64,000 bases of DNA from Thermodesulfobacteriota bacterium. GTDB taxonomy: Bacteria; Desulfobacterota; SM23-61. Below the pieces are notes generated by a model, which saw only the letters and a list, made by a program, of their open reading frames with translations, searched no databases and was not told where the DNA came from. This document shows positions 13,746-42,609 of this stretch, in pieces; position 1 is the first letter of the stretch, and each line of letters starts with the position of its first letter. The position numbers were made by a program, and so were the translations under genes. The DNA lies in the NCBI GenBank assembly GCA_049699975.1, contig JBNAWB010000001.1, forward strand, positions 24,534-88,533, given 5' to 3'.

Positions 13746-13761
13746 TGGCATAAAAATTGCT
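13746..13761 (+). promoter_or_regulatory. Sigma-54 promoter: TGGCATaaaaaTTGCT
   Basis: Same core as the fliK promoter, about 50 nt upstream of the second fliL. Confidence 0.65.
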
Positions 13762-18899: not shown

Positions 18900-21008
18900 A
18901 TGGCGGAAAAGAGAACTTCATCCTTATCTTTGCCTGGAGAAAAAGTAAGAATTGATCGCTCCGAAATTCTCATGGCCTTAGGGGTAGCTACTATCCTGCT
19001 GATCATGATCATCCCTTTACCCCCTTGGCTATTAGATATTTTCATTTCCTCTAGTATTACCATTGCTTTATTGATCTTGTTGACTGCTTTTTACGTACGC
19101 CAACCCTTAGAGTTTTCCACATTTCCTTCTGTGTTACTCATAACTACCCTTTTCCGTCTTTCTCTAAATATTGCCACGACCAGGGTTATCCTTCTGCATG
19201 GCAACGAAGGAACTGGAGCAGCGGGGGTAGTAATTAAATCTTTTGGCCACTTTGTCGTGGGGGGGAATTATGTTGTCGGCTTCATAATTTTCATCATCTT
19301 GGTCATCATAAATTTTGTGGTCATTACCAAAGGAAGCGGCCGGATTGCTGAAGTAGCCGCCCGGTTTACTTTGGATGCTATGCCTGGAAAGCAAATGAGC
19401 ATTGATGCTGATTTAAATGCCGGCCTTATTGATGAACAAGAGGCCAGGAGAAGAAGGGCCCAAGTATCCAGAGAGGCTGATTTTTATGGCGCCATGGATG
19501 GAGCGAGCAAATTTGTCAGGGGCGAGGCTATTGCTGGCATACTTATTATCTTAGTCAATATCATTGGTGGTTTTACGATCGGCGTTTGGCAACAGAATTT
19601 ACCCCTTTTGACGGCGGCGCAAACTTACACCATTCTCACTATCGGAGATGCCTTGGTTTCGCAAATTCCCGCCCTTATTATTTCCACTTCGGCTGGTATT
19701 ATTGTCAGCCGGGCCGCTTCGGAATTTAATATGGGGAAAGAGTTGAGTCGCCAATTTAAAGTCCAGCCGCAAGCCATCTATCTCTCCGCAGGAATCCTCT
19801 TCTTCTTAGGATTAATTCCCGGGTTACCCCATATTCCTTTTTTCCTGTTGGCTATCTTAGTTGGCTTAATTGCCCACCGAGCTTATCAAGAAGAACAAAG
19901 AAGAGCAGATTTAAGGAGAAAAGAAACAGAACAAAAAGTGGCTGCAACTCAAAAAACTGAGAATATAGAGGCTTTATTGGGATTAGACCGGCTGGAATTA
20001 GAAGTAGGCTACAGCCTCATTCCTTTAGTTGATGAAGAGCAAAATGGTGACCTCCTGACGCGCATTCGTTCTATTCGTCGCCAGATGGCTGCAGATTGGG
20101 GGTTTATAGTTCCTCCATTGCGGATTCGCGATAACCTCCAACTTAATCCCGGAGAATATAGAGTGCTCATCAAAGGCAATGAGGTGGCCCGGGCCGAAAT
20201 CATGACCGGTCATTTCTTGGCCATCGATCCCGGAGAATTAAAATATAAGATCGAAGGGATTCCTACGCAAGAACCAGTTTTTCAATTACCCGCTCTATGG
20301 ATTCCGGAAAGCAAAAGGGAAGAAGCTCAAATTGCCGGTTACACAGTAGTTGATAATTCAACCATCTTGACGACGCACTTGACGGAGATTATAAAAAACC
20401 ATGCTGCTGATTTGTTAAGCCGTCAAGATGTGCATAAGCTTTTAGAAAATTTAGCGCAAAATTATCCTAAGGTGGTAGAAGAATTAACCCCTAACCTTCT
20501 ACCTTTAGGGACTATCCAAAAAGTTTTGCAAAATTTACTGCGCGAACGAGTACCCATAAAAGATTTGTTAACTATTATGGAAACACTCTCCGATTATGCT
20601 TCTCTAAGCAAGGACCCTGATCTGCTTACAGAATATGTGCGCCAGAAATTAGGCCGCACCATCACCAAAAATTATGAAAATAAAGAAGGGGTGCTGCCGA
20701 TTATTACTTTAGAGCAGAAATTGGAGGATACTTTGCGGGAAAAAATTCAAAGAGGCGAACAGGGTTCATATCTGGTTTTAGAACCAATCTGGGCCCAAAA
20801 ATTATTAGCAGCTATTAAACAAACCTGGGAGCAAGGTGGGCAAATGGGCTATCCTCCTGTGCTTCTATGTTCTTCTGTATTAAGACGCCATTTGAAAAGA
20901 CTTTTGGAGCGCTTTATGCCCCAGGTGGCTGTTTTGGGACACAATGAAATTGCCTCCCCTACTAAAATTAAGTCTTTAGGGACGGTGAGCTTAGATTATG
21001 CAGATTAA
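18900..21008 (+). CDS. flhA: Flagellar export apparatus protein FlhA
   Basis: 702 aa with an N-terminal 8-TM domain, the FHIPEP region and a C-terminal cytoplasmic domain. Confidence 0.95.
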   Translation: MAEKRTSSLSLPGEKVRIDRSEILMALGVATILLIMIIPLPPWLLDIFISSSITIALLILLTAFYVRQPLEFSTFPSVLLITTLFRLSLNIATTRVILLHGNEGTGAAGVVIKSFGHFVVGGNYVVGFIIFIILVIINFVVITKGSGRIAEVAARFTLDAMPGKQMSIDADLNAGLIDEQEARRRRAQVSREADFYGAMDGASKFVRGEAIAGILIILVNIIGGFTIGVWQQNLPLLTAAQTYTILTIGDALVSQIPALIISTSAGIIVSRAASEFNMGKELSRQFKVQPQAIYLSAGILFFLGLIPGLPHIPFFLLAILVGLIAHRAYQEEQRRADLRRKETEQKVAATQKTENIEALLGLDRLELEVGYSLIPLVDEEQNGDLLTRIRSIRRQMAADWGFIVPPLRIRDNLQLNPGEYRVLIKGNEVARAEIMTGHFLAIDPGELKYKIEGIPTQEPVFQLPALWIPESKREEAQIAGYTVVDNSTILTTHLTEIIKNHAADLLSRQDVHKLLENLAQNYPKVVEELTPNLLPLGTIQKVLQNLLRERVPIKDLLTIMETLSDYASLSKDPDLLTEYVRQKLGRTITKNYENKEGVLPIITLEQKLEDTLREKIQRGEQGSYLVLEPIWAQKLLAAIKQTWEQGGQMGYPPVLLCSSVLRRHLKRLLERFMPQVAVLGHNEIASPTKIKSLGTVSLDYAD

Positions 21009-22029
21009 AAGTTTTCGAGGCTATGATATTCAAGAAGTATTAAAGCAAGTGAAAAAGGTTTTCGGGCCAGAGGCGCTGATCATTTCTACCAAGACCATTA
21101 AGCCACCGCCTGATCGGTTATGGCGCGGAGAAAGATCGCTAGTGGAAGTGGTTGCCGCCTTAGATTTTGCTAAGCAAAGTCTTGGGCTAGATAATGCCTC
21201 GGGTGAAGCTGAAAAAGAAGATTTAAGGCAAGGAAAAGATCCGGCCCTCTTGATCTCAAATCCATTGGCGGCCAAGATGTGTGCCCGGGGTCTTATGCCC
21301 GAGTTTGTAGCGGAAATAGCCGCCGAATATGAACATCTCCAAGCCAAGAAAGAGAAAGAAAATAATTGGCAAAATTTTCAAGAATTTGTTTTGTGGCGAA
21401 TTATGCAATCTGTGGAAGTGACCGGATTAGATTTAGAAAGAAAGAAGATATGGGCTTTTGTTGGCCCCACGGGCGTAGGCAAAACAACTACTATAGCTAA
21501 ATTAGCGGCTCTTTATCATTTACGTTACCAGAAAAAAATTGCTTTGATTACCTTAGACACTTTTCGCATTGGCGCCATAGAGCAATTGCAGACGTATGCG
21601 CAAATTTTACAGCTTCCCTTGCAAGTGGCGAAAGATGGAGAAACTTTACGCCAGGCCATTAATAATAATGTGGATCGGGATTTAGTGCTTATAGATACAG
21701 CTGGGCGGAGCCCTCACCAGCAGCTAGACCTGGAAGAGTTAAAAAATTTTTTAGGCGCCCATGGGCAAGTTGACTGCCACTTAGTCTTGAGTGCGACTAC
21801 CAAAGAAGCCGACTTAATGTTTAGTATTCAACAATTCAATATTTTCCCGGTGAAAAGCTATATTTTTACGAAGATTGATGAGACCAGAGACCATGTGGCC
21901 ATTTTTAATCAACTATGGCGCTTCCCGAAGCCTTTGTCTTTTATGACTAATGGGCAGAGAGTACCCGAAGATATAGAACTGGCGACTAAAGGGAAGGTTG
22001 CGAATTTAATCAGGCAAAATATTAATTAA
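20998..22029 (+). CDS. flhF: Flagellar biosynthesis GTPase FlhF (SRP-type)
   Basis: G1 motif FVGPTGVGKTTTIAKLA and SRP54-type GTPase motifs (DTAGR). Confidence 0.9.
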   Translation: MQIKSFRGYDIQEVLKQVKKVFGPEALIISTKTIKPPPDRLWRGERSLVEVVAALDFAKQSLGLDNASGEAEKEDLRQGKDPALLISNPLAAKMCARGLMPEFVAEIAAEYEHLQAKKEKENNWQNFQEFVLWRIMQSVEVTGLDLERKKIWAFVGPTGVGKTTTIAKLAALYHLRYQKKIALITLDTFRIGAIEQLQTYAQILQLPLQVAKDGETLRQAINNNVDRDLVLIDTAGRSPHQQLDLEELKNFLGAHGQVDCHLVLSATTKEADLMFSIQQFNIFPVKSYIFTKIDETRDHVAIFNQLWRFPKPLSFMTNGQRVPEDIELATKGKVANLIRQNIN

Positions 22030-22046: not shown

Positions 22047-22943
22047 ATGGATCAGGCCGAACAACTGCGCATCATGATGAACAAGCAGACTTTTATAAGT
22101 CCAGATAAATTTCCCCGCCTTATTTCTATAAGTAGCGGTAAAGGGGGCGTGGGCAAGACCAATATAGTGGTAAATTTGGCGTTGGCTTTGGCAAAATTGC
22201 GCAAGAAAGTTTTAATATTTGATGCGGACATGGGGTTGGCTAATGTCAATATCCTTTTAGGGTTGGTCTGCCCCTATAACATCGAGCATCTTCTAAAAAG
22301 AGAAAAAAAGATGGAAGATATTTTAGTTGCTGGCCCTGAAGGCATAAATATTTTGCCAGCCAGTTCGGGCTTTTTAGAAATAGGGCGGCTGCCCGAATCA
22401 CAGCAACATTTTTTAATAAATGAGCTGCACCAAGTAATGAAGGCTGTGGATATTTTATTGATCGATACAGCCGCGGGAATCTCGGCTAATGTGGTGTATT
22501 TTAATTTAGCTGCCGAAGAAACGATTGTGGTCCTCACCCCCGAAGCTACTTCTTTAGCCGATGCCTATGCTTTAATAAAAATTTTGTTCGCGGAGCATGG
22601 CAAGAAAAATTTTTCTATTTTAGTTAATGCCGCCCGGAATAGCCAGGAAGCAGAGGAAGTTTTTAAAAAAATTACAAAAGTTGTACATCACTTTTTAGGG
22701 GATCTTACTTTAGATTATTTAGGATTTATACCTTTTGACAGCCGCATTGGGGAAGCAGTTAGGCAGCAAAGAGCCGTTTTAGACCTCTTCCCTCAAGCCC
22801 GCTGCAGCCGTTATTTTTTAGAAGTGGCCCGCCTGCTTGATAAGAAGAAGACCGTCCATGTATTGGCAGGGAGGGAATCCTTGTTCTGGAGGCCTGGGCA
22901 AAATTTTGGTTTTAGGGGAGGAAAAATAGGAGGAGAAAATTGA
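22047..22943 (+). CDS. flhG: MinD/ParA-family ATPase FlhG (FleN), flagellar number regulator
   Basis: Deviant Walker A SGKGGVGKT and a position between flhF and fliA. Confidence 0.85.
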   Translation: MDQAEQLRIMMNKQTFISPDKFPRLISISSGKGGVGKTNIVVNLALALAKLRKKVLIFDADMGLANVNILLGLVCPYNIEHLLKREKKMEDILVAGPEGINILPASSGFLEIGRLPESQQHFLINELHQVMKAVDILLIDTAAGISANVVYFNLAAEETIVVLTPEATSLADAYALIKILFAEHGKKNFSILVNAARNSQEAEEVFKKITKVVHHFLGDLTLDYLGFIPFDSRIGEAVRQQRAVLDLFPQARCSRYFLEVARLLDKKKTVHVLAGRESLFWRPGQNFGFRGGKIGGEN

Positions 22944-23737
22944 AAAATAAAAATAATTATTATCAAGGCTATCAAAGATTATTGAATTTTCCTTCATCTT
23001 GGAATGATTTCTCCTCGCAGAAAGAAGAAATGATCTTGAAATATGCCCCCTTAATTAAACAGGTTGTGGAACGGTTAGCCATCCGCCTTCCTGCGCATAT
23101 AAACAAAGAGGATTTATTCAGTGCCGGCCTAATAGGACTGCTGGACGCGCTGGCTAAATTCGATCCCGAAAAAAAAGTGAAATTTGAGACCTATGCCGAA
23201 ATTCGCATTAAAGGAGCGATCTTAGATGAATTGCGATCTCTGGATTGGTTTTCCCGTTCGGCGCGGCAAAAAGCTAACCATTTAGAAAAAGTTCTGCATG
23301 CTTTAGGTATGAAAAAAGGAGGAGATCTCGAAGACGAAGAGATAGCTCAAGAGATGGGCCTTTCTTTAAGGGAATATTATGATCTCCTCAATGAAATTCG
23401 GGCGGTCAATTTATTGGATCTCGAAAGCATAGAAGAAAAGCTCTTGCCCAATGGCGAAAAGAATTTATTTAATCTAATAACCGGAGAAATGGAAAATCAT
23501 CCTTTACATGAAATTACCTGGCAAGAATTAAAAAAAGATTTGGCTAAGGCCATAGAAGAGTTGGCGGAGAAAGAAAAGATTGTCTTGAATTTATATTATT
23601 ATGAGGAACTTACTTTAAAAGAAATTGGAGATGTCTTGGGTTACACGGAATCACGTATATGCCAAATACACGCCAAGGCCATTCTGAAATTACGGGCCAA
23701 ATTGAGGGAATATTTGGGAACAGAGGAGGCATCTTAA
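22940..23737 (+). CDS. fliA: RNA polymerase sigma-28 factor FliA
   Basis: Sigma-70 regions 2, 3 and 4 (region 4 HTH LKEIGDVLGYTESRICQIHAKAILKLR). TTG start preceded by AGGAGGA; an ATG start at 23030 is also possible. Confidence 0.85.
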   Translation: MKNKNNYYQGYQRLLNFPSSWNDFSSQKEEMILKYAPLIKQVVERLAIRLPAHINKEDLFSAGLIGLLDALAKFDPEKKVKFETYAEIRIKGAILDELRSLDWFSRSARQKANHLEKVLHALGMKKGGDLEDEEIAQEMGLSLREYYDLLNEIRAVNLLDLESIEEKLLPNGEKNLFNLITGEMENHPLHEITWQELKKDLAKAIEELAEKEKIVLNLYYYEELTLKEIGDVLGYTESRICQIHAKAILKLRAKLREYLGTEEAS

Positions 23738-23754: not shown

Positions 23755-24141
23755 ATGGTAGACCTGAAAATGAAAATATTAGTCGTTGATGATTTTGCCA
23801 CCATGCGGCGCATTATCAAAAATATCTTAAAGGATTTGGGATACGAAAATATTTTCGAAGCAGATTCTGGGCTTTCAGCCTTAGAAATTTTAAAAAGAGA
23901 GAATATTAATTTTATTATTTCCGATTGGAATATGCCGCAAATGTCGGGCATCGAGCTCTTAAAAGCAGTGCGCAATAGTGAGCTTTGGAAGGATATCCCT
24001 TTTTTAATGGTTACCGCCGAAGGGCAAAAGGAGAATGTGCTGGAAGCGGCCAAAAATAAAGTAAGCAATTATATTGTTAAGCCTTTCACGGCTGAGGTTC
24101 TGAAAGAAAAAATCAATAAAATTTTTGAAAACAGAAAATAA
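23755..24141 (+). CDS. cheY: Chemotaxis response regulator CheY
   Basis: A 128 aa single receiver domain (DD...D...T...K pattern; ILVVDDFATMRRII..ISDWNMP..G). Confidence 0.9.
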   Translation: MVDLKMKILVVDDFATMRRIIKNILKDLGYENIFEADSGLSALEILKRENINFIISDWNMPQMSGIELLKAVRNSELWKDIPFLMVTAEGQKENVLEAAKNKVSNYIVKPFTAEVLKEKINKIFENRK

Positions 24142-24160: not shown

Positions 24161-24376
24161 ATGCCTGATGATTTTTTTACGTTAAATAAACTTAAGCAGA
24201 TGTCTTCTTTGGGCGGACCTTTAGACGCCAAAACAACCCCGGTAGCCAAAGATTTAGGAAAAGCTAAAAAGAAGCGGGAGAAAAAAGAGGAAAAAAATAA
24301 GCTGGCAAGTGAGGAACAAGAACAGAAAGAAAAAGGAGATTTGTCAAGGGGGAAAATTGTGGATATCTTAGTATAG
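24161..24376 (+). CDS. Small lysine/glutamate-rich hypothetical protein
   Basis: ORF overlapping the cheY 3' end. Highly charged and low-complexity; could be non-coding. Confidence 0.25.
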   Translation: MPDDFFTLNKLKQMSSLGGPLDAKTTPVAKDLGKAKKKREKKEEKNKLASEEQEQKEKGDLSRGKIVDILV

Positions 24377-24454: not shown

Positions 24455-24940
24455 ATGGCTATGAAGTATATACCTTTGGAAATGTGGTTCTTAATTATAG
24501 GAGCAAGCATCCTTATTTCTTCTTTGATAACCATTATTTGTTATAAAAAAATTTCTAACCTAATTTGGGCCCAAAGGATTAAAAATAAAAATCTCTGGAG
24601 CAAAAATTTCTTACCCATTATCGAAGAGTTGAAAAGCGTGCTTAAAGAAGCCGAAGACTTCTCCCACAATTTTTCCAGATTCTTAGAAGAAAGAAATAAA
24701 CTTTTCCATTCTTCGGCCTGCGGAAAAGAATTAGATAATAGCCAAAAGGAATTTGTAGCGCAGAGGCCAGATAATATGAAGACTTATTCCCCGGCCGCAA
24801 ATAGCTTAAGGCAAAAAACTATCCATATTTGCCAACTCGCTTCGGCCGGATGGGCAGTTGCTGATATCGCTTGGCAACTTGGCCTCTCTCGAGAAGAAGT
24901 GCAGTTGATATTAAATCTTTCCCAGAAGGCCACTAATTAG
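24455..24940 (+). CDS. Membrane-anchored protein with C-terminal helix-turn-helix (unknown function; possibly DUF2802-like flagellar-locus protein)
   Basis: N-terminal TM helix (FLIIGASILISSLITIICY) and a C-terminal HTH-like segment (ICQLASAGWAVADIAWQLGLSREEVQLILNL). Confidence 0.5.
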   Translation: MAMKYIPLEMWFLIIGASILISSLITIICYKKISNLIWAQRIKNKNLWSKNFLPIIEELKSVLKEAEDFSHNFSRFLEERNKLFHSSACGKELDNSQKEFVAQRPDNMKTYSPAANSLRQKTIHICQLASAGWAVADIAWQLGLSREEVQLILNLSQKATN

Positions 24941-25154
24941 ATTTTTGGCCTCTCTTCCCTCTCTTAGAAGAGCCTCCTAATCATGGAAATTTTTAGGCAA
25001 AAAATTCCCGCCGTTCATTAAGGGGGAATTTTTTTCCGCCTATTTTTCCAGCGATGGTCGCAGGAGGGAAAAATCTTATTAAAAAATAATAATGATTTTC
25101 ATAAATTAGAAGGTTTAAGGCGTGAAAACTAAAAAACATCTATAAGAAAGACCG

Positions 25155-25170
25155 GGCATACCGTTTGCAA
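25155..25170 (+). promoter_or_regulatory. Sigma-54 promoter: gGGCATaccgtTTGCA
   Basis: Correct GG-N10-GC geometry, about 30 nt upstream of flgF. Confidence 0.6.
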
Positions 25171-35147: not shown

Positions 35148-35684
35148 ATGGATGTATTACAAAATAAAGAAGAATTGGAAAAATGGTATGAAAATCCGGA
35201 TCCTTGGGGGTATGAAAAAAATCCTGAAGATCTTAACAGAAAAGCCATACTGCTTTCAGCAATTCCCAAAAAGCCCTATAAAAAAGTTTTAGATATAGGG
35301 TGCGGAAATGGCTTTATTACTAATTCTCTTCCTGGAGAAAAAATTATCGGCATAGATATTTCTTCTCGGGCAATCGAGTATGCGAAGAGAACTTGTCCCC
35401 CTCATATTGAATTTTTTCCCTATTCAATTTTTGACCTTCCTTTTTTAGGTTGGGGAAAAGATTTTGATCTTATAGTCATAACTGGAGTCCTATATCCCCA
35501 GTATATAGGTAATAGTGAAAAGTTAATTTATACAATCATTGATGATCTTTTGATTTGTAGGGGGATATTAGTTTGTTGCCATATTGAAGAATGGTATTCA
35601 GCTCGATTCCCTTATATTACTTTGCATAGAGAATATTATTCTTATCGAGAGTATGTTCATATTCTGGAGGTATATTTAAAATGA
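35148..35684 (+). CDS. Class I SAM-dependent methyltransferase
   Basis: Motif I VLDIGCGNGFIT. ATG 35148 with an AAAAGGA Shine-Dalgarno; the longer frame from 35028 overlaps the upstream gene. Confidence 0.7.
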   Translation: MDVLQNKEELEKWYENPDPWGYEKNPEDLNRKAILLSAIPKKPYKKVLDIGCGNGFITNSLPGEKIIGIDISSRAIEYAKRTCPPHIEFFPYSIFDLPFLGWGKDFDLIVITGVLYPQYIGNSEKLIYTIIDDLLICRGILVCCHIEEWYSARFPYITLHREYYSYREYVHILEVYLK

Positions 35685-38600
35685 TCCTTTTGTACCACAA
35701 AGTTTACCCAGAGTCACCATCTATATGGTGGGTAACTCCCAATGAGTTCTGGAGACAAATGGAAGAATTAAGGCGTTGTCAAGTTGTTTATTTAGACGAA
35801 TATGACCCAAATAATCCAGATCAAGTAGTTATAACTTTTGATGGCATATACGAAAATGTATTTACCCATGCCTTTCCTATCTTGAAAAAGTTTGGATACC
35901 CTTTTGAACTTTTTATTATTGGAAACTTCATTGGCAAAAATAATAGCTTTGATCAAGGAGAGCCTCTAATTAATTTTGCTGGCTCCGCTCAGCTAAGAAG
36001 TATGGTTCAGCATGGTGGACGATTACAATGGCACTCTTGGTCTCATCCAGATTTAAGTAAAATCAACAAAAAAGAAGAAATAGAGTCTGAGATTTTTATT
36101 CCTGCCCATATAAGAGATTTAGATCCAAAGGGATTTGCTTGGTTTGCTTATCCTCATGGACGTGTGCCATCTTTTGGGCAGCAGATCATAAAAGATTTTT
36201 TCAAAGGAGCTGTTTTATGTGATCAAGGAAAAGATTACGATCTCTATAATCTTAAAAGGATAACAGTTACTAATAAAACAAGTTTTGCTAAATCGACTGT
36301 ATCTTTAATTATAGCCAATTACAATTACGGACGTTTTGCAGCAGAGGCTATCGAATCAGCTATTCACCAAACTGTTCAACCGGATGAAATTCTTTTTATC
36401 GATGATTGTTCAGAAGACAATTCTATGGAGGTAGCGAACCGTTACAAAGAAAAAATAAGAATTGTTAGAAATGAGAGAAATTTAGGTATAGTTGATAATT
36501 TTAACAAAGCAGTTTCTTTAACTTCGGGGAAATATATATGCTTTTTAGGGGCTGATAATCGCTTGCGAAGCGACTATATAGAAAAATGCAAATTAGCTCT
36601 GGACTTGCATCCACAGGCCGCGATCGCTTATACAAATATTATTATTTTCGGCCCCCGAGCAGAAATTCTTGCACATAAAGTCCATGCCTCCCCTATAGAA
36701 GAATGCAAGGAAATTTTTTTATGGCGATTTCCTGAGTTTACTGACGAAACAAAGCAACTCCTCAGATCAAGGAATTTTATCCATGGCTCGTCCATGTATA
36801 GGCGAGAAGCCTTCGAAGAGGTGGGTGGCTACAAAAAATCTAATGGCCCCGAGGATCATCATCTATTTATACGCATTATAGATAAAGGATGGAAAGCTGT
36901 TCTATGCCCCGAATTCTTACTTGAATATCGGCAACATTCCAATGATCAAGCAAACACATATCTTAATATGGGTATAGAATTAGCTTTCCTTCGACGACAA
37001 TACAATTTGTTAATTCAGCAATTGGAAGCTTTAATGAAAAAAGAAAAAATAATTCAACAAACCCTTCATCAAGTATCTACTCATGCCCAACAAGAGAAGG
37101 TAGAAGAGGCAATTGAAATAATCCTCGAAACTTTAAGGAAATTTCCCGAGCATGGGAAACTGATCTTACAATATGCTCTACTTCTTAAGCTAAAAGGATC
37201 TGCTGATCAAGCCAAAAAGTACTTTGAGTATGCTCTTCTTTATAATCCTAATTTTAGAGAATTAGAGAAATATTATAATGATAAAAATATTCGCCCCCCA
37301 AAAGGCGTTGGCAATAGTGAGGGAGTTATATTGGGCCAAAATACTACCCCAAAAGTAGATCAAGTGATAGATCCAACTCCTGAAGGAGCCAATGCAGACT
37401 TAGAGGCAATTATGAAACGGAAGCAAACTCAAGTAAATAGTAATGAAAATTCAAAAAATGATACAAATTTATCCACAAAAAAAGAAAATCAAAATGGGGT
37501 TAGAGTTTCTATAATAATTCCTGTTCATAATCAATTGGAATTTACGCGAAATTGTTTAAAAGGTATTTTTGAGCATACAAATGAAAGCTATGAGCTGATA
37601 ATAGTAGATAATGCTTCATACGATGGAACAAGAGAATTTATTTTGGGGCTAAAGGAGTACCCGATAAGGCCTTTATTTTTGTCAAGCAACATTGGTTTTG
37701 GAAGGGCTTGTAATTTAGGCGCTAAAATTGCAAAAGGTAAATATCTTGTTTTTTTAAACAATGATACAGAAGTAACCCATGAATGGCTTAAACCATTAGT
37801 TCAGTTTATGGAAAATAATTCTGATTGTGGTGCGGTAGGATCAAAACTTGTTTATCCTGATGGAAGACTTCAGGAGGCTGGAGGAATTATTTTTGCAGAT
37901 GGCCAGGGTTGGAATTATGGTCGGGGAATGGATCCATCTGACCCTCGTTTTAATTTTGTCAGAGAAGTTGATTACTGTTCAGGGGCGGCGCTAATGATTC
38001 GAAAAAATGTATGGGATGAAATAGGAGGTTTTGATTTGCGCTACGCCCCAGCCTATTATGAAGATACAGACTTGTGCTTCGAGATCAGGAAGCGTGGCTA
38101 CAAAGTATATTATCACCCCAGAAGCGTTGTCCTTCATCATGAAGGAAAAACAGCAGGTACAGATCTTCAGTCGGGATATAAAAAATATCAGGAAATAAAC
38201 CGCTTTAAATTTATCGGAAAATGGAGAGCGGAACTAAAAAAACAATTTCCTAATGATCCTAGAAATGTATTTAAAGCCTCTGATAGACGGGCCATGAAGA
38301 ACATTTTGGTGATAGATGCTTTTCTTCCTTTTTATGATAGAGCTTCTGGTTCTCTCCGTTTATTTCAAATTCTAAAAATGTTGAAGAAATTAAAATTCCA
38401 TATAACTTTTCTGGCTAGGGACGGCTCTTTGGAAAGTCAATATCGCCCAGTTTTAGAAGAGATGGGGATAGAAGTTTATGCTGGGGATTATGAAGCTATG
38501 AAGGCTGCAGGATATAAAGATAACCCATGGCATTCTATTTCTTACGACTCTCTTTTTAAATATCGATCATATGATTTTGCGTTAATTGAATTTTGGGAAG

Positions 38601-40864
38601 TGGCAAATTATTACAGTCCCATTATAAGAAAATTTTCTCCCCAAACAAAGATAATTATTGATACAGTGGATATTCATTTTGTTAGAGAAATGCGCGAGGC
38701 TGAACTAAAGCAAAATCCTGAACTTAAAAGGAGAGCATTATTAAATAAAGAGAGAGAAATAGCTGTTTATAATAAGGCTGATAGAATTTGGGTGGTAACA
38801 GAGAACGATAAAAAGGCTATAGCAAATCTCGTAAATAATATACCAATTGATGTCGTGCCCAATATTCACGAAAGAAATGATTTTATAAAAAAATATGAAG
38901 AAAGTTCAGATCTTCTTTTTGTGGGCAACTTTAACCATCCACCTAATAGAGATGCAATTCATTTCTTTTGTCGAGAAATTTTTCCTCTTATTAAAAAGAA
39001 ATTATCGGGAGTGAAATTTTATATCGTGGGCAATAATCCTCCAGAAGATATTAAAATGTTGGCTTGCTCGGAGATAATTGTGACAGGTTATGTCCCAGAT
39101 CTGAGTCCTTATCTTAAAAATGCCAGAATCACTGTAAGTCCTTTGAGGTATGGAGCAGGAATGAAGGGAAAGATTGGAGAGGCTCTTTCCTGGGGATTAC
39201 CTGTTGTTACTACTTCTGTCGGGGCAGAAGGGATGGAATTGATAGACGGAGAAGATGCCTTGATTGCAGATTCTCCTGAGGAATTTGCCGAGAAAGTAGT
39301 TCAGCTTTATCATGATCCTATTCTCTGGAAAAATTTGTCCGATAAGGGAAAGAAAAAGGTCGAAATTAATTGGGCTCCAGAAGTTATAAATAAAAAATTA
39401 GCAGAAATCTTTGGATCGGAAAAATTGCAAGTGGAAGAAAGGCTTATTTCAATAATAATACCTATGCACAATCAATTCAAATATACAAAAAAATGCCTTG
39501 AAAGCTTATTTAATTATACAGATGTACCTTTTGAATTAATAATTGTCAATAATGGATGTACAGATGAAACCCCTGAATATTTAAAAGCAATTAGAGAAGG
39601 AAGGCAGTCTATTGCGGGTTGGAAGTTTTTTGCAGAAGAAAATGGAGAAATAAAAGAAAAAAGATTTGGTGGGAAAAGGAAAAATAAAAAGAAAAAAGCT
39701 ACAAAATATTTCTACTGCAAAAGGTTTAAAATAATTTCTAACGATAAAAATATGGGATTTGCTGCAGGTAATAACCGAGGAATAGCAGAGGCAAAAGGAG
39801 ATTATATCCTCCTCCTAAACAACGATGTGGTGGTTACTCCAGGATGGTTAAAAAGAATGTTGAATATAGCCGAAAGAAAATCCGAAATTGGTATAATTGG
39901 ACCAATGTCCAATTACGTTTCTGGGCCTCAACTCCTTGAGGATGTAAAATATAATATCCACACCTTAGAAGGGCTTAATGAATTTGCGATTCAATATGCT
40001 CAAAAAAACCAGGGACGAGCAAGACAATTCTGGAGAGTTGTAGGCTTCTGTATGCTCATTAAAAAAGCAGTTATAGAGAAAATAGGAGGATTAGATGAAA
40101 GATATGGAATTGGGAATTTCGAAGACGATGATTTTTCAATTAGAGCGCGGCTCGCAGGTTTTGAATCCTGGATTGCTGAGGATAGTTATGTCCATCATTT
40201 TGGTAACAGGACGTTTATAGGAGAGTCCATAGAATATTCTGAAAGCTTAAAGAGAAATTGGGAAATATTCAAAAAGAAATGGGGGATTCCGGAGGATATC
40301 GAGTACGGAGCTAAGTATGATCTGGGTTGGATTTTAAATCAAGACTTTGATCCAATCAAGCATTATTACCCAATAAATGCAGATGAATTATCAATTTATC
40401 AGGGCGAGGCATTATTTAATATGGGGGATATGGAAGGAGCAGAACATATTTTTCAAAGAATTCTCTCTTGGGATCCTAAAAATGTAGATGTTTTAAATGA
40501 TTTGGGAGTCATTTGTTTCCAAAAAGGAGAATTCGAGCAGGCAATTGCTTATTTTAACCAAGTCCTAAAATTGAACGAAAATCATTCCGAAGCTTTAGAA
40601 AATTTAGGAAATTGTCTTATTGCCCAAAGTAAGTTTGGAGAAGCAATCTCCTACTACGAAAGGGCTTTGAATTTGAGGCCAAGAGATGTAAGCCTTCTAA
40701 ATTCTCTTGCCAATTGTTTTATCCACTTAGAAGACTACGCCAAGGCCGAAGAGGTTTATAAAAAATCTTATCAGATAGATAACCATCAGATTCATGTAAG
40801 GGAAATCATTAACGAGATAGATAAGATGAAGATGTTCGAAAATCAAGGGAGCATGGTTACATGA
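35681..40864 (+). CDS. Giant multi-domain glycosylation enzyme: polysaccharide deacetylase (CE4/NodB)-GT2-TPR-GT2-GT4(GT1-fold)-GT2-TPR (1727 aa); candidate flagellin glycosyltransferase
   Basis: CE4 motifs ITFDG and HSWSHPD at the N-terminus, then three GT-A modules (SLIIANYNYGRF...DDCSEDNS; VSIIIPVHNQLEF...IIVDNASYDGT; ISIIIPMHNQFKY...NNDVVVTPGWL), one GT-B module (...SPLRYGAGMKGKIGEALSWGLPVVTT), and TPR repeats in the middle and at the C-terminus. Confidence 0.8.
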   Translation: MILLYHKVYPESPSIWWVTPNEFWRQMEELRRCQVVYLDEYDPNNPDQVVITFDGIYENVFTHAFPILKKFGYPFELFIIGNFIGKNNSFDQGEPLINFAGSAQLRSMVQHGGRLQWHSWSHPDLSKINKKEEIESEIFIPAHIRDLDPKGFAWFAYPHGRVPSFGQQIIKDFFKGAVLCDQGKDYDLYNLKRITVTNKTSFAKSTVSLIIANYNYGRFAAEAIESAIHQTVQPDEILFIDDCSEDNSMEVANRYKEKIRIVRNERNLGIVDNFNKAVSLTSGKYICFLGADNRLRSDYIEKCKLALDLHPQAAIAYTNIIIFGPRAEILAHKVHASPIEECKEIFLWRFPEFTDETKQLLRSRNFIHGSSMYRREAFEEVGGYKKSNGPEDHHLFIRIIDKGWKAVLCPEFLLEYRQHSNDQANTYLNMGIELAFLRRQYNLLIQQLEALMKKEKIIQQTLHQVSTHAQQEKVEEAIEIILETLRKFPEHGKLILQYALLLKLKGSADQAKKYFEYALLYNPNFRELEKYYNDKNIRPPKGVGNSEGVILGQNTTPKVDQVIDPTPEGANADLEAIMKRKQTQVNSNENSKNDTNLSTKKENQNGVRVSIIIPVHNQLEFTRNCLKGIFEHTNESYELIIVDNASYDGTREFILGLKEYPIRPLFLSSNIGFGRACNLGAKIAKGKYLVFLNNDTEVTHEWLKPLVQFMENNSDCGAVGSKLVYPDGRLQEAGGIIFADGQGWNYGRGMDPSDPRFNFVREVDYCSGAALMIRKNVWDEIGGFDLRYAPAYYEDTDLCFEIRKRGYKVYYHPRSVVLHHEGKTAGTDLQSGYKKYQEINRFKFIGKWRAELKKQFPNDPRNVFKASDRRAMKNILVIDAFLPFYDRASGSLRLFQILKMLKKLKFHITFLARDGSLESQYRPVLEEMGIEVYAGDYEAMKAAGYKDNPWHSISYDSLFKYRSYDFALIEFWEVANYYSPIIRKFSPQTKIIIDTVDIHFVREMREAELKQNPELKRRALLNKEREIAVYNKADRIWVVTENDKKAIANLVNNIPIDVVPNIHERNDFIKKYEESSDLLFVGNFNHPPNRDAIHFFCREIFPLIKKKLSGVKFYIVGNNPPEDIKMLACSEIIVTGYVPDLSPYLKNARITVSPLRYGAGMKGKIGEALSWGLPVVTTSVGAEGMELIDGEDALIADSPEEFAEKVVQLYHDPILWKNLSDKGKKKVEINWAPEVINKKLAEIFGSEKLQVEERLISIIIPMHNQFKYTKKCLESLFNYTDVPFELIIVNNGCTDETPEYLKAIREGRQSIAGWKFFAEENGEIKEKRFGGKRKNKKKKATKYFYCKRFKIISNDKNMGFAAGNNRGIAEAKGDYILLLNNDVVVTPGWLKRMLNIAERKSEIGIIGPMSNYVSGPQLLEDVKYNIHTLEGLNEFAIQYAQKNQGRARQFWRVVGFCMLIKKAVIEKIGGLDERYGIGNFEDDDFSIRARLAGFESWIAEDSYVHHFGNRTFIGESIEYSESLKRNWEIFKKKWGIPEDIEYGAKYDLGWILNQDFDPIKHYYPINADELSIYQGEALFNMGDMEGAEHIFQRILSWDPKNVDVLNDLGVICFQKGEFEQAIAYFNQVLKLNENHSEALENLGNCLIAQSKFGEAISYYERALNLRPRDVSLLNSLANCFIHLEDYAKAEEVYKKSYQIDNHQIHVREIINEIDKMKMFENQGSMVT

Positions 40865-42609
40865 AAAAAGGTAAAGGTATCAAACTTTCTCTTTGTATGA
40901 TTGTGAAAAATGAAGCCCATAATCTAAAGGATTGCATTCACCCCTTAAAATCAATTTTAGATGAAATCATTGTAGTAGACACCGGTTCTACGGATCAAAC
41001 GAAGGAAGTGGCCAAAAGCTTGGGTGCTAAGGTTTTTGATTTTCAGTGGTGTAATGATTTTTCTGCTGCCCGAAATGATTCCATCCGCCATGCTACCGGT
41101 GATTATATCCTCTGGCTCGATGCGGATGATCGAATTGATGAACAAAACATCAAAAAAATCGGGCAGTTAAAGAATAGTTTATCAGCAAGCAGAGATAAAG
41201 CCTATTATTTAATAATAAATAGCCAATCACCTGTAGATGGAGAGACTCGTTTTCGGCAAATAAGAATATTTCCAAAGATAAAAGGGACTCTATTTGAAGG
41301 AAGGGTCCATGAGCAAATTTATTATAGCCTTAAACGCCAAGGAATAAAATTTGAGAATATGGATATTGAAATTAGACATATAGGGTATTCAGATTCTGAA
41401 ACCATTATTAAAAAAGCTCAAAGAAATCTTTCTATAATTGAAAGCGAACTGAGCGTAAAACCTAATGATTTAATATTACATTATAATGCCGCGCGTACTC
41501 TGGCCATGATTGGCCGAAAAAAAGAAGCAATTTATCATATGAAAATTATAACCAAAAATAAAAATATCAGAAAGCGGGAAAAACAATTCTATTTGGAATG
41601 CGCATTATTGATGGGCAAGTATTACGTTGAATTAGGGTCATATGGAGAGGCTGTTTCCATCTTTTCTGAATTAAGCAAAGATTTTAAAGATAATGCTTTA
41701 GTCCATTTTTGCTTGGGGCAAGCTTATTTCCATTCCCGAAATTACGACCAGGCAATAAAGCATTTTCACGAGTCGCTCCTTTTCCCTTTAGAAGTTGGTC
41801 TATTGCCGATTAACCTAAACCAGCTACGTTACGATTTACATTATAGCCTAGGCCAATGTTTTTTAGAAAAAGGCCAGAATGAATTAGCTAAAAATAATTT
41901 TTTAAGATCTTTGCAATTTAGAAATGACTTGCCTAAAAGTTACCAAGCCTTAGGCCTATTATATCTTAAAGAGGGAAATTTTGAAGAAGCAATTAAGTAT
42001 TATGAGAAGGTCATTTTGTCAGAAAGAGCTACCGATCAAGATTATACAAACGTGGGTTTGGCTTATCGAAAGCTTGGCCTATATAATCAAGCAGAGGAAG
42101 CTTTCCAAAAAGCCTTAGAGATCAATCCTCAAAGAATAGAAGCCTTAACTAATTTAGGACATCTCTATTATGCAAATAAAGATTACTATAAAGCAGAGGA
42201 ATTTTTTAAAATGGCTTTAACCTATGATGCCAATTTAATTGATATAAGATTAATCTTAAGTGATATTTATTTTCGCTTTTACGAGATCGAAAATTTAATA
42301 TCGCAATGTGATGCTCTTTTGAGAATTCTTAATTTACCTCGCCACATCACCATAAATAATTTCGCAGAAATAAATGCTTTATATAAGAAAATGGCCGAGA
42401 TTTTTTCTGCCCTTGGGCAAGAAAGGTTCGCTCTTTTAGCCTGGAAAACAGCTTTTTTAATTTATCCCCAGGAAGAAATCTTGGAAATGATCATCAACAA
42501 AGCAATCACTTTAGGATTGAAGGAAAAAATAATAAGAGAATTGAATGAGATAATAGAGTTTTACAAGCAGAAGGAAAAGACTGAGGAAGTTTCTTTTTTG
42601 GCCAACTAA
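40861..42609 (+). CDS. GT2-family glycosyltransferase fused to C-terminal TPR repeats
   Basis: N-terminal GT-A domain (LSLCMIVKNEAHNL...VVDTGSTDQT...WLDADDRI), then about 350 aa of TPR repeats. Confidence 0.8.
   Translation: MKKGKGIKLSLCMIVKNEAHNLKDCIHPLKSILDEIIVVDTGSTDQTKEVAKSLGAKVFDFQWCNDFSAARNDSIRHATGDYILWLDADDRIDEQNIKKIGQLKNSLSASRDKAYYLIINSQSPVDGETRFRQIRIFPKIKGTLFEGRVHEQIYYSLKRQGIKFENMDIEIRHIGYSDSETIIKKAQRNLSIIESELSVKPNDLILHYNAARTLAMIGRKKEAIYHMKIITKNKNIRKREKQFYLECALLMGKYYVELGSYGEAVSIFSELSKDFKDNALVHFCLGQAYFHSRNYDQAIKHFHESLLFPLEVGLLPINLNQLRYDLHYSLGQCFLEKGQNELAKNNFLRSLQFRNDLPKSYQALGLLYLKEGNFEEAIKYYEKVILSERATDQDYTNVGLAYRKLGLYNQAEEAFQKALEINPQRIEALTNLGHLYYANKDYYKAEEFFKMALTYDANLIDIRLILSDIYFRFYEIENLISQCDALLRILNLPRHITINNFAEINALYKKMAEIFSALGQERFALLAWKTAFLIYPQEEILEMIINKAITLGLKEKIIRELNEIIEFYKQKEKTEEVSFLAN

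Follow-up and report, generated by a model that had tools for sequence, protein, structure and literature searches.

We analysed a stretch of 64,000 nucleotides from a Thermodesulfobacteriota bacterium (GenBank assembly GCA_049699975.1, contig JBNAWB010000001.1, positions 24,534 to 88,533 of the forward strand), hereafter called the window and numbered from its first letter, and within it a small gene that lies between cheY and flgF in a cluster of flagellar genes. An original prediction had described the product of this gene, here called the target, as a membrane-anchored helix-turn-helix (HTH) protein of unknown function. Sequence comparison places it in a superfamily for which functions are on record: DUF2802 corresponds to FipA, an interaction partner of the GTPase FlhF (PMC11620751), and DUF6115 corresponds to SwrB, which activates type III export of flagellar components and raises the fraction of basal bodies reaching hook assembly (PMC4526659).

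The open reading frame (ORF) described earlier, 24455-24940 on the plus strand and 161 amino acids (aa) long, is present in the window. Because the orthologues keep an ATG at 24461, with a purine-rich ribosome-binding site 5-7 nt upstream, and have TTG or ATA at position 24455, translation probably starts at 24461, which makes the earlier start 6 nt too early and the protein 159 aa long. Residue numbers of the target follow the 161-aa frame throughout. Judged from its sequence, this is a real gene. The ratio of nonsynonymous to synonymous substitution rates (dN/dS), calculated against two orthologues, is 0.22-0.24 overall, which is purifying selection; by part, it amounts to 0.15-0.26 in the transmembrane (TM) and helical region and in the C-terminal region, and to 0.6-0.8 in the linker.

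From N- to C-terminus, the target is predicted to contain a single TM helix, a long helix, a linker of variable sequence and a domain of three helices (Table 1). Hydropathy and an AlphaFold2 (AF2) model agree on one TM helix, and the model adds a C-terminal HTH-like domain, both as the original prediction had proposed. The TM segment (residues 11-30) has a Kyte-Doolittle value of 2.4 over 19 residues. Because it is followed by five K/R and no D/E, the C-terminus is predicted to be cytoplasmic and the short N-terminus to lie outside. Merely 8-10 residues or so would be exposed outside the membrane, leaving no room for a sensor domain. The AF2 model, built with a close-orthologue alignment, has helices at residues 8-43 and 48-89 and, beyond a stretch modelled with low confidence (88-115), a bundle of three helices at 118-158. 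In the family alignment the N-terminal hydrophobic block is kept, and the long helix carries the motif L-x-E-x-E-x2-S-x6-LEEK/R with L75 and E77 near-invariant; the linker differs among family members in both length and sequence.

Table 1. Features of the target locus; positions are those of the window unless another locus is named, and pLDDT is the predicted local distance difference test.
Feature	Position	Strand	Basis or remark
Target gene, SwrB/FipA-superfamily protein	24461..24940	+	159 aa from conserved ATG; 161 aa if start 24455
Single N-terminal TM helix, residues 11-30, predicted N-out/C-in	24485..24544	+	Hydropathy, flanking charges, AF2 helix
Long cytoplasmic helix, residues 48-89	24596..24721	+	AF2; family alignment; central DUF6115 profile matches here
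Variable linker, predicted disordered, residues about 88-115	24716..24799	+	pLDDT <50; dN/dS 0.6-0.8
C-terminal three-helix HTH-fold domain, residues 118-158	24806..24928	+	Carries G132, L144, E148, L151
flhF, signal recognition particle (SRP)-type GTPase, same operon, candidate partner	20998..22029	+	Pfam SRP54; synteny
flhG, MinD/ParA-type ATPase	22047..22943	+	Pfam ParA, CbiA, AAA_31
fliA, sigma-28	22940..23737	+	Pfam Sigma70_r2 and r4; synteny
cheY	23755..24141	+	Pfam Response_reg; NCBIfam CheY model 161.7 bits, below curated cut-off 189
orf71, KE-rich 71-aa ORF directly upstream of target	24161..24376	+	Called and conserved in L001-L004
Sigma-54-type -24/-12 element GGGCAT-N5-TTGCA, upstream of flgF	25154..25169	+	Pattern match
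orf71 homologues	L005 7742-7963; L006 7736-7957; L007 7709-7939		Similarity

Family membership was assessed with Pfam profiles. DUF6115 (PF19610) matches the target with 27.6 bits against a cut-off of 27, over residues 57-155 and profile positions 37-133 of 134. DUF2802 (PF10975) matches with 22.4 bits against a cut-off of 33.5 (E 1.3e-4; profile positions 36-67 of 68), and this match is limited to the C-terminal motif. A 100% identical partial copy of the target is named 'DUF6115 domain-containing protein' by NCBI, and PF19610 is a precomputed annotation on the proteins P0001-P0009 as well as on SwrB. For SwrB itself, a sequence that is not an exact database entry was used only as a query to retrieve the authentic protein. 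This query fits the published mutant positions H13, L48, F51, L53 and L155, is 99% identical to authentic SwrB and scores 27.0 bits against DUF6115, so that the borderline score of the target is close to that of a SwrB-like sequence; all SwrB comparisons after this retrieval use the retrieved sequences. Because every retrieved copy of 'swarming motility protein SwrB [Bacillus subtilis]' carries PF19610, and many SwrB orthologues are named 'DUF6115 domain-containing protein' by NCBI, DUF6115 is, by its annotated members, the SwrB (YlxL) family.

A word-indexed homologue search returned 11 close relatives of the target, and an exhaustive HMMER search of 1.84 billion representatives returned 44 proteins at E <= 0.001, most of them 150-170 aa long and with the same layout as the target. 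Among the aligned family members, DUF6115 is matched in 32 of 33 and DUF2802 in 24 of 33. Both cut-offs are passed by P0132, the closest non-trivial relative at 33% identity (DUF2802 37.1 bits, DUF6115 31.4 bits), and by P0164 (36.8 and 32.8 bits, respectively); the homologue in locus L005 reaches 32.7 bits with DUF2802. On these scores and the profile comparisons below, the target sits securely in the DUF6115/DUF2802 superfamily, nearer to SwrB, and its direct similarity to gamma-proteobacterial FipA is weak. With the Pfam E-value given above and with close relatives that pass the cut-off, the DUF2802-type likeness suggested by the original prediction proves a useful lead; for the target itself, whose score stays below that cut-off, DUF6115 is the better match.

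Aligned by hhalign with a 16-sequence SwrB alignment, the target family scored 96% (E 4.3e-9), over the C-terminal 47 columns only. Profile-profile comparison of the target family with gamma-proteobacterial FipA C-termini scored 48% (E 1.9e-4), and that of SwrB with FipA was weak (5%, E 0.007). The register was identical in all three comparisons. We further ran local hidden Markov models (HMMs) with 567 ORFs of the window as decoys. With the SwrB HMM, no ORF of the window scored better than the target (E 0.003), and 11 of 13 FipA fragments came out above every decoy; the family HMM matched 16 of 16 SwrB sequences (E 1e-12 to 6e-6) and placed two FipA fragments above the decoys. Since both Pfam models are passed within the family and the register is one, the target family bridges FipA and SwrB.

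The shared register brings residues of known functional importance into the same columns. For FipA, the motif regions of the three studied proteins were rebuilt (32-35 aa) from the mutagenesis primers in Supplementary file 1e of PMC11620751; the rebuilt segments are parts of PF10975 proteins of Vibrio, Pseudomonas, Shewanella and Idiomarina, and an X-padded alignment of them led to 23 partial DUF2802 proteins, so that the comparison is one with fragments rather than with full-length FipA. The FipA residues mutated were G110, E126 and L129 in V. parahaemolyticus, G104, L116 and L123 in P. putida, and G106, L118 and L125 in S. putrefaciens; the G and the L at +19 (G110 and L129) were required for FlhF binding and function (PMC11620751). 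The resulting pattern, G, L+12, E+16 and L+19, corresponds with identical spacing to G132, L144, E148 and L151 of the target. In SwrB, G136, E152 and L155 share columns with G132, E148 and L151, and L155P belongs to a set of just five loss-of-function alleles that gave stable protein (bioRxiv 10.1101/2021.04.30.442225). Across 23 target-clade and SwrB C-termini, the residues L, G, I-A, E, L and L are invariant. The hydrophobic junction residues L48, F51 and L53 are also critical for SwrB activity (bioRxiv 10.1101/2021.04.30.442225). For that region, the DUF6115 match covers the post-TM helix of the target, and the hhalign alignment spans the C-terminal domain only.

The likeness to SwrB extends beyond these residues. 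Both proteins are about 160 aa long, with one TM helix at the N-terminus and most of the chain in the cytoplasm, a topology predicted for the target and shown experimentally for SwrB (bioRxiv 10.1101/2021.04.30.442225). In both, a helix with an LEE-K/R type motif is followed by a variable acidic linker and a C-terminal G-x5-IA-x8-E-x2-L three-helix domain, and both genes stand last in a flhA-flhF-flhG...sigD/fliA operon. They differ in that overall identity is very low, in that orf71 lies beside the target gene whereas none is called between sigD and swrB in B. subtilis, and in their hosts, the target belonging to a diderm with flgH, flgI and sigma-54 promoters and SwrB to a peritrichous Firmicute. 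FipA (VP2224, PP_4331 and Sputcn32_2550; PF10975) resembles the target in being a bitopic membrane protein, 130-165 aa long, in which a coiled region in the cytoplasm leads to one C-terminal domain. Its genes also lie downstream of flhA-flhF-flhG-fliA-che genes, and FipA is found only alongside flhF and flhG (PMC11620751). Unlike in the target, the region before the FipA domain is shorter (G at 104-110 versus 132) and the gene follows the whole che/mot/par block instead of coming right after the cheY region. FipA is moreover described in PMC11620751 as restricted to gamma-proteobacteria, whereas the target locus is closest to Thermodesulfobacteriota and Syntrophaceae metagenome-assembled genomes (MAGs). 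FlgW of Campylobacter jejuni has been described as distantly related to SwrB and as necessary for normal flagellation (PMC9321776; bioRxiv 10.1101/2021.04.30.442225); its gene is not beside flhF and flhG (PMC4073491).

The genomic setting is consistent with this assignment. The flagellar context given by the original prediction, between cheY and flgF, is correct, and flhA-flhF-flhG-fliA-cheY lies upstream of the target gene. In close relatives the order is flhA-flhF-flhG-fliA-cheY-orf71-X-flgF-flgG-flgA-flgH-flgI, where X is the target homologue, so that the ORF is conserved in related flagellar loci. A scan of a genome collection with an 11-sequence alignment returned three loci, none from the window's own species. 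These MAG loci (Thermodesulfobacteriota, Syntrophaceae and 'delta proteobacterium'), with FlhA 72%, FlgG 80-84% and X 28-30% identical, show the order flhB-flhA-flhF-flhG-fliA-(cheY)-orf71-X, then a FliK-like gene, an FlhB-C-terminal-like gene, flgF and flgG. In P. putida, where the copy lies at a contig end, fipA adjoins an FlhB-C-terminal-like gene and a Flg_hook gene, and genes of these two types also come after X in the MAGs. FliK-like (Flg_hook) and small FlhB-C-terminal-like (Bac_export_2) genes are located at 8484-9908 in L005, 8462-9887 in L006, 8464-10293 in L007 and 248-2209 in L008; the window lacks the pair at the corresponding place. The FipA gene lies immediately downstream of the flhA-flhF-flhG-fliA-che operon (PMC11620751), and the B. 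subtilis order is flhA-flhF-flhG-cheB-cheA-cheW-cheC-cheD-sigD-swrB. In all lineages examined, genes of the family lie downstream of fliA/sigD.

The original prediction had also placed the gene at the junction of two sigma-54 operons. A sigma-54 -24/-12-like element is found at 13746, before fliL, and another before flgF (Table 1), and the pattern scan detected none directly upstream of the target gene; for this reason the gene reads as the last of a fliL...flhA-flhF-flhG-fliA-cheY-orf71 unit, by pattern evidence only, and the junction stands to the same extent. The flgF element is invariant in L001 and L004, two diverged orthologous loci, while its flanks diverge. Across the window, elements with 0-2 mismatches occur at 2060, 9924, 13746, 25154 and 34295 (+), each intergenic and before successive flagellar blocks; the total of such matches in the window does not exceed what chance would give, and it is only where they lie that is suggestive. 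A scan for the sigma-28 promoter consensus produced noise only, and a scan for sigma-70 promoters and terminators around the target gene produced nothing convincing. An AT-rich inverted repeat, GGAAATTTTT-AGGC-AAAAAATTCC, lies at 24985-25008, about 150 bp upstream of the flgF sigma-54-like promoter, and is kept in the window, L001 and L004; it could be a site for an enhancer-binding protein or the end of the upstream transcript.

The original prediction had likened the C-terminal domain to sigma-70 region 4. The HTH fold is predicted with confidence, in a domain model based on an alignment of target-clade and SwrB C-termini, but as a generic tri-helical HTH rather than sigma region 4 specifically: identity to most sigma-factor matches is 12-16%, with a maximum of 26% (3hug_A), and at E <= 1 Pfam finds neither Sigma70_r4 nor any other HTH family in the target. 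Weak GerE, HTH_7 or HTH_23 matches occur in some family members and not in the target, and a sequence search of solved structures returned nothing significant. Unlike HTH DNA-binding domains (sigma-70 region 4, LuxR/GerE, resolvase HTH_7, DeoR/SorC N-terminal domain), with which it shares no significant sequence match, the target domain is placed C-terminal to a TM anchor with no sensor domain, its third helix carries acidic residues, and the related domain of FipA is a protein-binding surface. The acidic residues of the third helix are conserved in all three groups, as REEVQL in the target, KAEAEL in FipA and KTEIEL in SwrB, which would be unusual for a helix that reads DNA.

Further observations concern this domain. 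The family profile also matches proteins with tandem resolvase-type HTH_7/HTH_23 repeats (P0143, P0146, P0147, P0151 and P0162) and others in which the DUF6115-type C-terminal domain occurs twice or three times (P0155, P0157 and P0165); these matches suggest that the domain arose among simple HTH modules. The C-terminal part of an NCBIfam model for SpiroCoCo family coiled-coil proteins weakly matches target residues 57-153 (28 bits, cut-off 125), which hints at a related C-terminal module in spirochaetes.

Taken together, we consider it fairly probable that the target, as a member of the SwrB (DUF6115)/FipA (DUF2802) superfamily, is a small bitopic inner-membrane protein that promotes an early step of flagellum assembly. 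By analogy with its characterised relatives, its most likely function would be that of a membrane-anchored assembly or licensing factor acting via contacts with other proteins. FlhF is the foremost candidate and likeliest partner because the FipA residues for FlhF binding are conserved in the target, because flhF and flhG are in the same operon, and because FipA-type genes occur only with flhF and flhG.

We hypothesize the following sequence of events. The target gene would share a transcript with the fliL...flhA-flhF-flhG-fliA-cheY unit, at its end, and the gene product would insert into the membrane with a very short outside N-terminus and the single TM helix. Self-association through the long cytoplasmic helix would probably follow. 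The C-terminal HTH-fold domain, carried on a flexible linker, would act as a protein-binding module at the membrane and, as in FipA, most likely bind FlhF via the conserved face around G132, L144, E148 and L151. FlhF would in this way be recruited or activated at the assembly site, where the complex of MS-ring, C-ring and export gate would be nucleated and become export-competent, an outcome that matches the SwrB phenotype.

Several results weigh against this proposal. The target barely exceeds the DUF6115 cut-off and falls below that of DUF2802; the close-orthologue profile compared with FipA by hhalign was insignificant (E 0.017), and the narrow HMM of gamma-proteobacterial FipA fragments misses the target among the window ORFs. 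The C-terminal fold is the fold of DNA-binding HTH domains. The TM helix of the target, WFLIIGASILISSLITIICY, contains no His, unlike that of SwrB, where H13 is invariant in the SwrB alignment and needed for punctate localisation (bioRxiv 10.1101/2021.04.30.442225). Finally, SwrB genetics point to FliG, FliP and FliO, not to FlhF, and the partner may differ by lineage.

The main alternative is a different mechanism within the same family, in which the target, like SwrB, acts transiently and sub-stoichiometrically on basal body or export gate (FliF-FliG or FliO/FliP) and switches on flagellar type III export with FlhF not involved. The better score of the target with DUF6115/SwrB than with DUF2802 speaks for it, as do the far stronger alignment of the target family with SwrB than with FipA, the mapping of SwrB suppressors to FliG and FliP (PMC4526659) and the reported binding of FliO by the C. 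jejuni relative FlgW (personal communication cited in bioRxiv 10.1101/2021.04.30.442225). Because the TM histidine on which SwrB function depends is absent here, and because the operon includes the flhF-flhG pair and the FipA residues for FlhF binding are conserved, we nonetheless regard a mechanism of this kind, independent of FlhF, as rather unlikely. The two mechanisms may not be mutually exclusive, or may be one.

The original prediction had instead considered a membrane-tethered transcription regulator or an anti-sigma-like component of the flagellar hierarchy, proposals from which both characterised relatives lead away, since they act after transcription through protein contacts. A regulator would place its C-terminal HTH on promoter DNA at the membrane, as the predicted fold might invite; yet in FipA it is FlhF that is bound through these conserved residues, the action of SwrB is post-transcriptional, acidic residues are kept in the third helix (REEVQL, KAEAEL, KTEIEL), and the target has neither an extracytoplasmic sensor domain nor an HTH Pfam match at E <= 1. 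We therefore judge this explanation very improbable, and the target most likely is not a transcription regulator. A modulator of sigma-28, anti-sigma or anti-anti-sigma-like, such as a decoy resembling region 4 to which FlgM or FliA would bind at the membrane, would draw on the resemblance to sigma region 4, which amounts to the generic HTH fold at the identities given above. In addition, Pfam and NCBIfam searches found no known anti-sigma domain (ZAS, RskA, FlgM and similar) in the target, and the effect of SwrB on sigma-D is explained by FlgM export once the export gate is active (PMC4526659), which makes such a modulator scarcely credible. A membrane-anchored assembly factor with FlhF as candidate partner thus remains the explanation we prefer.

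The KE-rich ORF that the original prediction had reported upstream of the target gene, orf71, is likewise present and conserved. It lies directly upstream of the target homologue in L005-L007, at 33-36% identity, where the target is only 28-30% identical. Its N-terminus is conserved (M-x-D-D/E ... PV-x-K), its middle is charged and of low complexity, and its C-terminal end, G-K/Q-x-x-D-I-L-V/I, is invariant. By this conservation, orf71 is a partner gene of the target. An identity with FlgM or another known protein was rejected, since orf71 has no Pfam or NCBIfam match. Elsewhere in the window, a 1727-aa protein at 35681-40864 (+), inside the flagellar cluster, combines four GT2 domains, one GT1 domain, a polysaccharide deacetylase domain and TPR repeats, and is followed by a 582-aa GT2-TPR protein at 40861-42609 (+); flagellin glycosylation is a possibility for this pair.

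What the window gains is above all an improved annotation: the target is an ordinary but informative flagellar accessory gene, and the family is extended to Thermodesulfobacteriota-like bacteria. The connection between FipA and SwrB is of use as a by-product and does not amount to a discovery about the target locus. SwrB has been stated to be conserved only in Bacillus (PMC4526659), and FipA homologues to be absent from Bacillus, epsilon-proteobacteria and spirochaetes (PMC11620751); in the literature consulted the two proteins are handled as unrelated and each as confined to its lineage. In the indexed literature, no paper besides PMC11620751 contains both names. The link may already have been raised there, as 'SwrB' appears three times in its indexed full text, outside the main text, references and supplements and probably in peer-review material.

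Because the family passes both Pfam models in one register, with the critical Leu in the same column, a mechanism shared by FipA and SwrB is predicted. We put forward, tentatively and as somewhat less probable than its converse, that a single ancient family comprises FipA, SwrB and possibly also FlgW of Campylobacterota, with the target clade as the missing link. Its members would all be membrane-anchored, carry an HTH-fold domain and be encoded where the flhA-flhF-flhG...fliA operon ends. If this is true, FipA and SwrB would have one mechanism in common, in which SwrB also works via FlhF or FipA also licenses the export gate; an HTH fold would have been repurposed for protein binding, and orf71 would be a further partner in the target lineage.

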